Source: a virus
Direction: 5' to 3' (one strand)
Virus record (IMG/VR): IMGVR_UViG_3300023084_000003
Length of the DNA: 64,000 bases
Shown here: one piece after another, positions 16,105 to 47,807 of the stretch
Layout: each line of letters begins with the position of its first letter
How positions within the stretch are numbered: position 1 is the first letter of the stretch
The notes under the pieces: model-generated
The model's input: only the letters and a program-made list of their open reading frames with translations
Database searches by the model: none
Told to the model about the DNA's origin: nothing
Made by a program: the position numbers and the translations under genes

Positions 16105-16416
16105 ATGGCTGAAGACAACGGTTACCATCCAGCGGATACAAACGGCGACGGTGTTGTAGATGATATCGAACGCGAAATGTATCTTGAATTTAAAAGAAAA
16201 GAATTAGAAGACAAGGACGCACAGCGTGATGCAATGCGTGGGATGACTTGGTTTGCTTTATTCGGCATGCTACTTTATCCATTTGCAATTGTCTTAACAT
16301 CATATTTTGGACTAGATACTGCAGCAGGAATCGTTGGTGATATTGCACCGACATATTTTGTTGCTATTTCTGCTTTGGTTGCAGCATTCTTTGGTGCTGA
16401 CGCTATCCGTAAGTAG
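16105..16416 (+). CDS. small two-TM membrane protein, possibly holin-like
   Basis: DTNGDGVVD Ca-loop-like motif followed by two hydrophobic helices; AGGAG RBS. Confidence 0.7.
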   Translation: MAEDNGYHPADTNGDGVVDDIEREMYLEFKRKELEDKDAQRDAMRGMTWFALFGMLLYPFAIVLTSYFGLDTAAGIVGDIAPTYFVAISALVAAFFGADAIRK

Positions 16417-16423
16417 ATAAATC

Positions 16424-16454
16424 AAAAGGGAGGCCTTCCTAGGTGCCTCCCTTT
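16424..16454. terminator. bidirectional intrinsic terminator
   Basis: AAAAGGGAGGC-loop-GCCTCCCTTT stem with A/T tails on both sides. Confidence 0.8.
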
Positions 16455-16820
16455 CTATCTGTTTGTTTCGATGTACAGCACCCGGCTAGCTTTCCATTCG
16501 GTACTAGCGACTCACCGACCATCCAAAAGCTGCAGACTTATGGATGGATTTTTTTGGGTACGTTCGCGTAATTGCAGGCTTTCCCCGTGCGCCATAAGTA
16601 ACGAGGACTGAGTTCTTACTGCCTGGTCGAGTTTTCCTCAGTCCTCGCTAATTCTGGTTTTCACGTCACCGGTATTTCACGGGCGGTATATTCACCAGAA
16701 TGTTCTTGCCCGACCTTGTTTACTCACGACGCGCAGGCTACGTCAGGCAATATATCTCTTTAATCCATTTTTGCCACTTTAGCGGCTGAGGGTTTGGAAC
16801 CTCTCAATATTGCCTTGATA
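16425..16820 (-). ncRNA. unassigned ~390-nt structured RNA
   Basis: No substantial ORF; GC-richer than flanks; stems 16599-16612/16637-16650, 16651-16658/16694-16701, 16519-16525/16541-16547 and 16745-16753/16807-16815; bounded by a promoter and a terminator. Confidence 0.7.
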
Positions 16821-16825
16821 CTATT

Positions 16826-16853
16826 AATATATACTTTTTCTAGTAAATGTCAA
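16826..16853 (-). promoter_or_regulatory. sigma70-type promoter driving the putative ncRNA
   Basis: GGG-TTGACA-16nt-TATATT on the minus strand. Confidence 0.7.
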
Positions 16854-16873
16854 CCCTTTTATTGAATTTTTTT

Positions 16874-17074
16874 TCAAATTTCTTCTACCGTTACCTTATA
16901 CAACTTACCGTTGAAGTCTTCCATAGTAATGGTTTTCTTCGTTGACAGCATGTAACCATCGATAGGATGCAAATCCATTTTTACTCTACCAACCTGAGTA
17001 ATCTTATTTTCTGGTTTATCATTGTTGAAAGCGGTACTGATCACGTGTGCGATATAGTCGCAATAAGCCAACAT
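16874..17074 (-). CDS. hypothetical protein
   Basis: 66-aa ORF in a minus-strand early cassette. Confidence 0.7.
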   Translation of the reverse strand: MLAYCDYIAHVISTAFNNDKPENKITQVGRVKMDLHPIDGYMLSTKKTITMEDFNGKLYKVTVEEI

Positions 17075-17301: not shown

Positions 17302-17571
17302 TTAAGCCTCTTTCATATATTCTACGATAAGTTGCAGATCTTCTTTGGAAAAATCTGATTTACGAGTACCCCAAGTAGCGCCGAAGCGAGTAAGCTTGTC
17401 ACCGACAACTGCAAGATGATTAGATTTTGCATCATCTTTTTCTGTGGCTGCACAGTTCATCATGTAACGACCGATAACACCAAGCTTTTTCTGGTTAGGA
17501 GTAGTTTCCATCATATTTATATTCCTCATTGATTGTAGAACTATTATATCAAAGTTTGAAAGAGCTGTCAA
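17302..17571 (-). CDS. hypothetical protein
   Basis: 89-aa ORF overlapping the upstream stop. Confidence 0.65.
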   Translation of the reverse strand: MTALSNFDIIVLQSMRNINMMETTPNQKKLGVIGRYMMNCAATEKDDAKSNHLAVVGDKLTRFGATWGTRKSDFSKEDLQLIVEYMKEA

Positions 17572-17795
17572 CCCTTTTTTTGAAAAAACTTTACGAAATC
17601 TAAAAATAATTCGTAAGCTACTTCCTCAACATAGTCGATTGGAGTATGGCACAACAAAGGCTCAGCTGCATATGCATCCAAAACGATTTGTTTGTAAGCA
17701 GGGAATGATGTAACGTTCTCATTCTCAGCTTGTTCATCGATCACACCTACGATGCGTTCTTCCATTTCCATTACTAATTCTTTCATTTGACCCAT
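17568..17795 (-). CDS. hypothetical early protein
   Basis: AGGAG RBS; first gene after the promoter at 17823-17851. Confidence 0.75.
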   Translation of the reverse strand: MGQMKELVMEMEERIVGVIDEQAENENVTSFPAYKQIVLDAYAAEPLLCHTPIDYVEEVAYELFLDFVKFFQKKG

Positions 17796-17822
17796 ATTGG
17801 TCTCCTTTCATCTTATATTAAT

Positions 17823-17851
17823 AATATAGTACTTTCAGAATGCAATGTCAA
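17823..17851 (-). promoter_or_regulatory. early promoter
   Basis: GGGG-TTGACA-17nt(...AAAGTAC)-TATATT. Confidence 0.8.
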
Positions 17852-17854
17852 CCC

Positions 17855-26991: not shown

Positions 26992-27048
26992 ACTTTTTCT
27001 CCGTGTATATATCTGTAAATATATTACATAATGAAGAAATGTCAACCC

Positions 27049-29813: not shown

Positions 29814-29837
29814 ATTATCTATTTATTAGACTGGCGA

Positions 29838-29845
29838 TATTTATA
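29838..29845 (-). promoter_or_regulatory. late promoter upstream of tRNA-Thr
   Basis: TATAAATA on the minus strand about 25 nt before the tRNA 5' end. Confidence 0.55.
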
Positions 29846-29960
29846 CAACTTTACATAGTATGCAAACGACCTAGGGTAGTTTCGAGGATTCGGTAAAGTG
29901 ATTCCTCGACTACCCCAGTACTGTAAAAATAAAACTATTTGTTTGTCTGTCATAATAAAC

Positions 29961-30865: not shown

Positions 30866-30893
30866 AATATAGTACTTTCTTGGAGAATGTCAA
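30866..30893 (-). promoter_or_regulatory. early promoter
   Basis: GGG-TTGACA-16nt(...AAAGTAC)-TATATT. Confidence 0.75.
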
Positions 30894-31270
30894 CCCTTTC
30901 TTTGAAATTTTTTCACAAATTCTAAAAGAATTTTCTCCGATCGTTCTCTGGCTTCTTGTTCCCACCAACAAGTGTCATAGTTGTAACCCTTGTCAAGAAG
31001 CTCTCCAAGATTATCATACATGAACTGCTTCACATGAACCATTTCGTGGGCTATACTAGTATATATCTGGCTTATGTTCTTGTTCTTCTTAGAAATCAAA
31101 ATTAAATAGTTATCTTCATCAATATCAATACACAGACCAGACTTGTCGTTTACGATCTTATCTTCTGCAACAATCTCAATACTCTTTGGCCAAGCTGGCA
31201 AATTCTCGCAGCAAAAACGAGTAAAGTGAGTTGTGAGTTTTGGATCTAATCCTTTTACCTTAACTTTCAT
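30890..31270 (-). CDS. HEXXH metallopeptidase-like protein
   Basis: SIAHEMVHVKQF, WWEQEA; paralog of 17855..18286. Confidence 0.7.
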   Translation of the reverse strand: MKVKVKGLDPKLTTHFTRFCCENLPAWPKSIEIVAEDKIVNDKSGLCIDIDEDNYLILISKKNKNISQIYTSIAHEMVHVKQFMYDNLGELLDKGYNYDTCWWEQEARERSEKILLEFVKKFQRKG

Positions 31271-32852: not shown

Positions 32853-32905
32853 GACGAACCCTTTTTCAATTTATAAGACTATTCTATCACAGTTTTTGGT
32901 ATATG

Positions 32906-33115
32906 TCAACCAAAATATTTTTCAAGCATGTCTAAAACGTCTTGATATTTAGCCATTTCAAGGATTTCTGTTTCCATTGCTTCAAAAACATCTGGATGCT
33001 CGCCAATTCCTGCTGGATTATTAAGATATACCTCAACATTCATTCTATGTTTTTGAATATGTCCGTGGGCATGAGCCTTCATTGCTTTAATCATTACTTC
33101 TTGTTCTAGTGCCAT
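32906..33115 (-). CDS. hypothetical protein
   Basis: 69 aa; AGGAG RBS; NPAGIGEHPD motif. Confidence 0.7.
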   Translation of the reverse strand: MALEQEVMIKAMKAHAHGHIQKHRMNVEVYLNNPAGIGEHPDVFEAMETEILEMAKYQDVLDMLEKYFG

Positions 33116-34947: not shown

Positions 34948-35011
34948 GATTTTATCCCTTTTGGAAACATTATTAAGCTATTCTATACTATTTCTTTTGT
35001 TATGTCAACCC

Positions 35012-45837: not shown

Positions 45838-45873
45838 ATTACAAACGTTTTTTCATTTTATTTGAAAAAGGGG

Positions 45874-45902
45874 TTGACATTGCCCTGCAAAAGTACTATA
45901 TT
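45874..45902 (+). promoter_or_regulatory. early promoter
   Basis: GGGG-TTGACA-17nt(...AAAGTAC)-TATATT. Confidence 0.8.
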
Positions 45903-45933
45903 ATTAATATAAGGAAAAACAAAGGAAATCAAA

Positions 45934-47743: not shown

Positions 47744-47778
47744 CATTTTTGTCAAGTAAAAAAATTTTACAGAAGGGG

Positions 47779-47807
47779 TTGACATTTAACTCCTTTTGTG
47801 TTATATA
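47779..47807 (+). promoter_or_regulatory. sigma70-type promoter for the tmRNA gene
   Basis: GGGG-TTGACA-17nt-TATATA. Confidence 0.7.

Follow-up and report, generated by a model that had tools for sequence, protein, structure and literature searches.

Our analysis of a 64,000-nucleotide (nt) stretch of viral DNA (record IMGVR_UViG_3300023084_000003 of IMG/VR, whose whole length we call the window) suggests that the unit lying on the minus strand between positions 16424 and 16853 is probably a polycistron of autonomous, stable RNA modules, the 3' core of which is a new phage RNA present in a single copy. The source is an uncultured aquatic T4-like phage, since the DNA polymerase encoded in the window shares about 45% identity with cyanomyovirus polymerases, the window carries a permuted transfer-messenger RNA (tmRNA) of the alphaproteobacterial type together with two transfer RNAs (tRNAs), and the sequencing runs containing the stretch are salt-marsh metagenomes and metatranscriptomes. 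T4-like marine myophages with a two-piece tmRNA have already been described (PMC9004378). In the mechanism that we propose, one early-type transcription unit would make a non-coding minus-strand RNA of about 396 nt, as a local, tRNA-free version of a variable stable-RNA island that in related phages holds tRNA genes between its modules. The core, composed of a hairpin E, a domain F and a hairpin P6, with or without an upstream domain D, would be a single-copy pseudoknotted RNA ending in its own hairpin, which here would double as the terminator. The modules would be stable structural RNAs made beside the tRNAs and tmRNA of the phage, in the manner of the species 1 and 2 RNAs of T4, GOLLD and ROOL, and the core would self-associate by way of the palindromes in the apical loops of E, P5 and P6. 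In kind, the unit is a structured non-coding RNA (ncRNA) of a phage tRNA island, but one that forms a new family with cassette-like evolution.

The interval 16424-16853 consists of a promoter, about 396 nt of RNA and a terminator hairpin, in this order on the minus strand. The promoter (16826-16853) has a -35 box TTGACA at 16853-16848 and a -10 box TATATT at 16831-16826, matches the consensus at 11 of 12 positions, is identical in the nearest virus record (G001) and predicts a transcript start near 16819. It is a member of an extended family, GGTTGACA-N15-19-TANNNT, often with an A/T-rich run upstream, of which the window contains 10 copies when 0.17 would be expected from shuffled sequences; this motif marks the early-type transcription units of the phage. 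At the other end of the unit, the P6 hairpin (16454-16424) forms a 10-bp GC-rich stem with UUUU directly after it, the arrangement of an intrinsic terminator. A consensus terminator scan of the window did not list the hairpin at 16424-16454, probably because its 10-nt loop exceeds the 8 nt that the scan allows. The GC content of the unit is 0.48-0.50, compared to 0.33-0.41 for its flanks, and its fold-energy z-score against shuffled sequences is -5.9 for the minus strand and -3.7 for the plus strand; base pairs of the G.U type that are valid on a single strand only also place the RNA on the minus strand. The only open reading frames (ORFs) overlapping the region are two plus-strand ones of 42 and 46 amino acids (aa), both of which are broken in G001 by a 20-nt insertion and by swapped hairpins. 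An initial annotation of this region had listed the promoter, the terminator, the lack of a credible ORF, the raised GC content and four helices (16599-16612/16637-16650, 16651-16658/16694-16701, 16519-16525/16541-16547 and 16745-16753/16807-16815), and we recovered each of these features exactly where it had placed them. All four helices are found in the minimum-energy fold and are preserved in homologs, either through compensatory change or by replacement of the whole hairpin. The proposal that the interval is a complete, non-coding, highly structured and phage-borne transcription unit is supported by the promoter, the terminator, the fold-energy score and the lack of a conserved ORF.

The predicted transcript is a chain of independently folding, exchangeable modules rather than a single global fold. 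From 5' to 3' on the minus strand, these are module A (16708-16815), with a 9-bp closing helix, inner hairpins and an invariant 3' hairpin; module B (16651-16701), a 51-nt hairpin; module C (16601-16648), a hairpin with a 24-nt loop; module D (16554-16594), consisting of helices P1 and P2 and pseudoknot PK1 and forming an optional 5' accessory domain of the 3' family; the variable hairpin E (16519-16548); domain F (16459-16518), with helices P4 and P5 and a candidate pseudoknot, PK2; and the terminal stem-loop P6 (16424-16454), the terminator here. We favor this modular reading because the parts are permuted or separate in relatives and because the long-range helix of the minimum-energy fold is not kept. 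The layout of the window is the same only in G001, which is 86-88% identical to it over the unit. The differences between the two are clustered: hairpin E is swapped for an unrelated hairpin, a sub-domain of A is swapped as well, and an extra palindromic hairpin of 20 nt separates two parts at their exact boundary, with the remainder identical. A perfect 16-nt palindromic hairpin with the apex CCGCGG lies exactly at the junction between A and B in the nearest relative, L001 (1770-1795, minus strand), and the junctions therefore tolerate insertions.

In more distant relatives the order itself changes. In L002-L004, the promoter is followed by a leader hairpin, B, A, another element, tRNA-Thr, tRNA-Pro and finally E-F-P6. 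In L006 and in the complete 221-kb genome G002 the order is promoter, a C-type leader, D-E-F-P6, another element, tRNA-Trp, a small ORF in some cases, tRNA-Pro, B (short in G002) and a terminator. L117 has tRNA-Pro, C and E-F-P6, L314 has a promoter, A, a terminator and nothing further, and in L315 the promoter and A precede an array of nine tRNAs. Other related contigs contain the pieces permuted, alone with their own promoter and terminator, after protein genes, or split by tRNA genes. Overall, relatives interleave the modules with tRNA-Thr, Pro, Trp, Arg, Met and Asn, which is the tRNA-island setting typical of GOLLD- and ROOL-like RNAs; the unit of the window itself contains no tRNA.

The initial annotation had seen in this interval a stand-alone RNA of about 390 nt, a candidate novel large ncRNA or ribozyme; on this reading, a 5' multibranch domain and the 3' domain would cooperate in one global fold. 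The fold-energy score of the whole interval, far better than that of shuffled sequences, the identical order of parts in G001 and the very short linkers (2-7 nt between modules in both the window and G001) would all fit such a molecule. The 16-bp helix that joins the 5' and 3' halves in the minimum-energy fold, however, lacks its partner segment in most rearranged relatives and contains a U-U mismatch in G001, and the parts occur separately or reordered elsewhere (A alone in L314, B-A-X-tRNAs-E-F-P6 in L004, C-E-F-P6 in L117, E-F-P6 alone after genes). There is also no match to a ribozyme model of Rfam, and D has neither the P3 hairpin nor the invariant C of HDV-like (hepatitis delta virus-like) ribozymes. 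A single large RNA is therefore improbable in our opinion; what survives of the earlier proposal is an uncatalogued structured phage ncRNA, while the notion of one global multibranch fold or of a ribozyme does not.

The 3' module (125-175 nt; 16424-16596 in the window) is, on the basis of sequence comparison, a new phage-specific family with a conserved core, E-F-P6, of about 125 nt. By new we mean that it matches nothing in Rfam 15 or among GenBank phages, a catalogue of 10,006 candidate viral RNAs (PMC10690425) being outside this comparison. A gapped pattern for D yielded 24 distinct variants in IMG/VR, of which 20 were aligned with MAFFT, independently of any model, and given a hand-drawn structure; 93% of the cells in this alignment are paired and 17 pairs show compensatory change, with none of 500 shuffles scoring as high. 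The covariance model R1 was built from it. A second search, with a 28-nt pattern for the core of F, covered metagenome contigs and 185,579 prokaryotic species genomes, and found 104 metagenome contigs of up to 205 kb, apparently mostly marine, coastal or estuarine, but a single match in the prokaryotic genomes, on a 3.6-kb contig of a metagenome-assembled genome that is probably a mis-binned phage fragment. Scans of viral contigs with 15-mers and with the gapped F-core pattern gave mostly chance matches, so the former were filtered by eye on their flanking sequence and the latter with the covariance model. R1 aligns 100 matches, 85 of them distinct (alignment A4). In A4, 96.3% of the cells are paired and 28 of 38 pairs, including one pseudoknot, show compensatory change, counts that lean towards the structure of the model to which the alignment was fitted; when the structure is slid along the alignment only 34-46% of cells are paired, and none of 500 shuffles reaches the observed values. 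R1 finds one copy in the window, over the full length of the model and with all helices present (153 bits, E = 1e-48), and one strong copy each in G001, the complete G002, G004 and G005.

The elements of the core follow one another in a fixed order: the variable hairpin E, a UCGGU motif, P4 with a loop starting with UACCG, a second UCGGU-like motif, P5, an AUA and P6. Helices P1, P2, P4, P5 and P6 all covary in A4. Two long-range alternatives proposed by RNAalifold, one pairing the 5' GGC and the other competing with P4, were set aside, as the hand-drawn P1 and P4 covary. Module D consists of helix P1, the small hairpin P2 and PK1, formed between a loop GGG and a downstream CCC. PK1 is well supported by covariation, its middle pair being G-C in 29, A-U in 12, C-G in 2 and U-A in 2 sequences, and it is extended to 7 bp in one sub-lineage; as the search model did not include PK1, it introduced no bias for this pseudoknot into the alignment. 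When the sequence upstream of the 85 members was screened for motifs, D was found in 37, a C-type hairpin in its place in 5 and neither in 43, and it is because D is optional that we define the conserved core as E-F-P6. In homologs, unrelated hairpins take the position of hairpin E, whose loop in the window contains CUGCAG. In domain F, which comprises the two UCGGU-type motifs, P4 with its UACCG loop and P5, the window carries a rarer subtype also found in L071 and L077, and a second pseudoknot, PK2, between CGGU and ACCG is plausible. P6 has a 10-bp GC-rich stem, 9 pairs of which covary, and a 10-nt loop, with the palindrome CCUAGG in the window. Many members, though not all, have a U-tract after P6; where it is missing, transcription must continue past the hairpin into further modules or an ORF, and termination is for this reason not the defining role of the family. 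In essentially all of the 85 members, the P6 stem has the dinucleotide GA immediately after it (16422-16423 in the window); AUA stands before it. The base of P6 may accordingly have a conserved extension or contact of a non-canonical type.

No known RNA family accounts for the unit, as the initial annotation had anticipated. At the gathering threshold, Rfam 15 found only the tmRNA and the two tRNAs in the window, all located elsewhere; at E-values up to 10, the region 16300-16950 gave only chance hits, mostly on the terminator or outside of the RNA. In fourteen related loci, Rfam found only tRNAs and tmRNA. The models scanned included RNase P, 6S, signal recognition particle RNA, tmRNA, group I and II introns, riboswitches, GOLLD, ROOL, OLE, HEARO, raiA, manA and self-cleaving ribozymes. 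A blastn search of 50,697 GenBank phage records with the RNA of the window and with one typical family member gave no match. We ruled out a riboswitch or other cis-regulator of the 5' untranslated region (UTR), as the element sits 3' of genes or tRNAs and the downstream genes are varied or, as in the window, convergent. An HDV-like ribozyme was also discarded: D is a simple H-type pseudoknot with only GAAA at the place of P3, its joining strand has C or U instead of an invariant catalytic C, and it is missing from over half of the members. No Rfam model for other self-cleaving ribozymes matches and nothing points to catalysis. None of the other candidates that we considered has support: tandem repeats are lacking for a type III antitoxin, a partner gene for a guide RNA and a model match for 6S-like or Y RNAs, and nothing favors a retron msr.

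The genomic context of the family is variable. Directly upstream of 43 of the 85 members is an ORF of at least 60 aa, and at eight of these loci the family starts at the stop codon of a gene for a gp32-like single-stranded DNA-binding protein (SSB). A further 20 members directly follow tRNA-Arg, tRNA-Pro or tRNA-Met, with tRNA-Arg in 17 cases (four of which were checked in detail and carry a TCT anticodon), and the remaining members lie inside RNA islands. Such positions could mean that the modules are the cis-acting ends of a tRNA or mRNA operon, A serving as a 5' cap and E-F-P6 as a 3' exonuclease block and terminator, and that the unit of the window is an emptied cassette. This would explain why A is the first element behind the promoter in the window, G001, L314 and L315, why E-F-P6 always closes a cistron or unit, after varied genes or tRNAs and often with a U-tract, and why relatives hold tRNAs in between. 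Yet there is one copy per 221-kb genome, where a device protecting operon ends in general would be expected at many of them; a single copy per genome in changing places argues instead for an autonomous RNA unit. A plain terminator hairpin would suffice for such a role, and still some 65 additional nt, two candidate pseudoknots and invariant loops are conserved. The tRNA-free layout is found in two diverged phages in which hairpins have been replaced rather than decayed, and A occurs as a stand-alone gene with nothing to protect. We consequently think it unlikely that the modules are operon ends, and prefer to see them as autonomous RNAs.

In many relatives (L007, L069, L077, L078, L080, L081, L082, L092 and L142), the stop codon of the gp32-like SSB gene marks the start of the family, which there would constitute the 3' UTR of gene 32 mRNA. 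The gene 32 message of T4 is notably stable.

The modules are also represented in RNA libraries. Contigs from four metatranscriptome libraries span 16492-16800 with no mismatch, and other contigs from the same libraries have the invariant parts joined to other module variants; the divergence sets in within D and within E and on either side of the invariant 3' stretch of A, which matches the modular picture. Three contigs, taken from different studies, end at 16799-16807, which hints only weakly, if at all, at a start site. The promoter region (~16808-16855) is covered by none of the contigs listed for X18, X19 and X20 and is crossed by one contig of X4. All four RNA libraries show a peak of contig depth at 16471-16737, which we set aside since the runs were chosen for containing this stretch and depth cannot rank genes.

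The apical loops of the core have an unusual property. The loop of P6 contains a palindromic hexamer in 84 of the 85 variants (CUGCAG in 55, CCUAGG in 26 and CUCGAG in 3), a number that none of 2000 shuffles equals, and CCGCGG in a further lineage. A palindromic tetramer occupies the loop of P5 in 83 of 85 variants (ACGU, or UCGA in the subtype of the window), and 56 of 59 distinct E apices carry a palindrome of 4-6 nt, compared to 24 ± 4 in shuffled loops. Self-complementarity that is kept while the sequence changes points to pairing between two copies of the RNA, adjacent loop bases being unable to pair together. The same palindrome-switching argument has been made, and structurally confirmed, for OLE and GOLLD (10.1101/2024.12.08.627333). 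On a tree of F cores, the P6 loop allele changes 20 times, versus 24 in shuffles, which shows that P6 alleles are swapped as cassettes between cores or else that the tree is poorly resolved, and no stepwise covariation is seen. On this evidence, we consider it possible, and put it forward tentatively, that the E-F-P6 core self-associates. The more specific idea that E-F-P6 is a compact self-assembling RNA, in which E, P5 and P6 would make symmetric kissing contacts leading to a homodimer or a closed higher-order assembly, strikes us as somewhat doubtful. If it were true, the core would be a miniature counterpart of the GOLLD, ROOL and manA cages, made together with the phage tRNAs and tmRNA and perhaps scaffolding or enclosing them, with the exchangeable 5' modules (A, B, C, D or tRNAs) as its cargo or decoration.

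Palindromes and cassette exchange might also be expected of a DNA-level feature, such as a recombination hotspot, a replication origin or a cluster of protein-binding palindromes, or the unit could be a decaying remnant without function. The exchange of modules between genomes as cassettes and the many apical palindromes, of a type recognized by dimeric DNA-binding proteins, speak for this explanation. Numerous G.U and U.G pairs, however, work on one strand only, for example a U-G present in 26 sequences at one pair of E and a G-U present in 18 sequences at one pair of P6. Moreover, the covariation of the pseudoknot would be meaningless in duplex DNA, the 85 variants are highly conserved and the stretch is found in RNA libraries. 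A purely DNA-level or vestigial nature of the unit is very improbable in view of these observations, and we retain the interpretation of autonomous RNA modules.

Several points nevertheless weigh against this interpretation or parts of it, in addition to the lean of the A4 counts mentioned above. The RNA evidence consists of assembled contigs, which give no strand, ends or abundance and could reflect carry-over of DNA. The four core pairs of PK2 are invariant and hence give no covariation signal, and the same is true of the 3' hairpin of A and its candidate pseudoknot. With linkers as short as those described here, the modules might act as one molecule in the sub-lineage of the window and G001. 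Because P6 alleles are exchanged as cassettes, the palindrome argument would draw on only four independent alleles and not on many events. The palindromes at the E apices may merely result from perfect inverted repeats, and a dimeric protein recognizing its site at the level of DNA could account for the palindromes in general.

Enigmatic structured RNAs have already been found in phage tRNA islands, including the species 1 and 2 RNAs of T4, known since the 1970s, GOLLD and ROOL; to our knowledge, none of these has an established function. The family described here joins them with 85 variants and strong covariation that includes a pseudoknot, is phage-specific and is present in RNA libraries from its habitat. 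GOLLD and ROOL are large RNAs of phages and prophages that were shown by electron cryo-microscopy (cryo-EM) to form homo-oligomeric nanocages (10.1101/2024.12.08.627333). Like them, the new family is phage-borne, lies in or beside tRNA islands, sometimes with tRNAs inside a variable linker, and contains pseudoknots. As in GOLLD, whose linker can hold tRNAs, the 3' region is conserved and the 5' region variable. The symmetric kissing loops switching between palindromes would be a further shared trait, oligomerization being in our case predicted from sequence. The new family differs from GOLLD and ROOL in having no Rfam match, in its different secondary structure, in the size of its core (125-175 nt versus ~580 to >800 nt) and in being found only in contigs of uncultured marine or estuarine T4-like phages.

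The T4 species 1 and 2 RNAs (rnaC and rnaD) are likewise small stable non-coding RNAs of a T4-type phage, and they lie directly after tRNA-Arg at the distal end of the tRNA cluster, a position comparable to that of the 17 members of the new family that follow tRNA-Arg. Neither the covariance model with its filters off nor blastn found anything in the corresponding T4 region (70908-71171). In addition, the 3' end of rnaC forms a tRNA-like T-arm that has no counterpart in the new family, and no tRNA adjoins the unit of the window. The manA motif of cyanophages is a short RNA that forms kissing-loop cages (10.64898/2026.07.01.735769). Both it and the new family are structured RNAs of less than 200 nt from marine T4-like phages and have several apical loops, which in manA kiss between molecules. 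manA differs in that the new family has no Rfam match to manA, in its location in 5' UTRs rather than at 3' ends, and in that its contacts join different loops, whereas the loops of the new family are each self-complementary.

Two further comparisons concern short motifs. The dimerization initiation site of human immunodeficiency virus type 1 is a hairpin whose loop has a 6-nt palindrome flanked by purines, with alternative palindromic alleles between strains; the likeness is one of mechanism only, the molecule and its biology being unrelated. The bulge of the T-box antiterminator has the consensus UGGNACC, and domain F contains a UGGUACC heptamer in an RNA associated with tRNA genes. Its UGG, however, covaries with the 3' strand of P4 (CUAG/CUAG and CUGA/UCAG variants) and no T-box model matches; because the UGG is paired within the RNA, it is not free to bind the CCA end of a tRNA.

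The core family is small enough, at 125-175 nt, for direct structural work. Its evolution is unusual: cassette-like shuffling has distributed RNA modules over tRNA islands, the 3' end of gene 32 and genes that stand alone. Loop alleles that are always palindromic offer a concrete and cheap test of RNA self-assembly, a topic that has become prominent since the cryo-EM structures of RNA-only cages of 2024-2026.

The 5' modules show their own signs of conservation. In A, two hairpins lie within the closing helix (16815-16807 with 16753-16745), one of them T-loop-like (16806-16787) and the other with a UAAA loop (16786-16773); the helix is followed by the invariant hairpin 16744-16728, whose loop can pair with 16713-16708 in a candidate pseudoknot. 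In an alignment of six A sequences (A5), five extend over the closing helix; it is paired in each of them and shows compensatory change in 5 of 9 pairs. Module B has an 8-bp base helix and an internally repeated interior. Its 45-48-nt core is 100% identical in most of its otherwise differing contexts and about 96% identical in L006, the pairs of the base helix and flanks covary, and the B of G002 is a short form missing the inner 26 nt. Module C has a stem of 12-14 bp and a conserved 24-nt loop; the stem changes in a compensatory manner in L006 and L117, where C is either a 5' leader or takes the place of D before E-F-P6. C and D may be variants of one accessory domain, as the covariance model aligns the stem of C with the PK1 helix of D.

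Module B was also found as one branch of a structured RNA of about 175 nt in L067 (5150-5330, minus strand), L068 (6385-6560, plus strand) and L066 (560-740, minus strand). The closing helix of this RNA covaries and it has no Rfam match. In L067 and L068, where its end coincides with the Shine-Dalgarno sequence of a gene for a MazG-like pyrophosphatase, it is a candidate 5' UTR regulator.

The RNA island of G002 appears from sequence to occupy the same genomic slot as the unit of the window, since a convergent gene lies next to it, and the visible 3' end of that gene is similar to the 3' end of the window gene at 16105-16416. Within 1700-2090 on the minus strand of L100, which is G002, an element of about 115 nt with a 13-bp closing helix lies between D-E-F-P6 and tRNA-Trp, and an ORF of about 54 aa lies between tRNA-Trp and tRNA-Pro; members of the same ORF family follow the RNA family in L070, L074 and L089. 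The nine-tRNA array headed by A in L315 (11300-13840, plus strand) has several long, GC-rich and apparently structured spacers. The gene at 16105-16416 of the window (plus strand) converges on the RNA, with which it has the terminator in common, and encodes a protein of 103 aa that is acidic in its N-terminal and hydrophobic in its C-terminal part. It has no match in PHROGs, and a PHROGs search of ten neighboring ORFs gave nothing informative, in particular no reverse transcriptase, TnpB, IscB, Cas or Ro-like partner.

The further copies of the extended promoter motif are located at 782-812, 17543-17573, 17821-17853, 27018-27047, 30866-30895, 32881-32911, 34980-35010, 45872-45904 and, before the tmRNA, 47766-47786; a similar GGGGTTGACATT upstream motif is found just 5' of the two-piece tmRNA gene of the phage. 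Lastly, the 147-nt spacer between tRNA-Arg(TCT) and tRNA-Thr(TGT) in the window (29814-29960, minus strand) contains a long near-perfect hairpin, which may be another non-tRNA module of the same kind as those of the unit.

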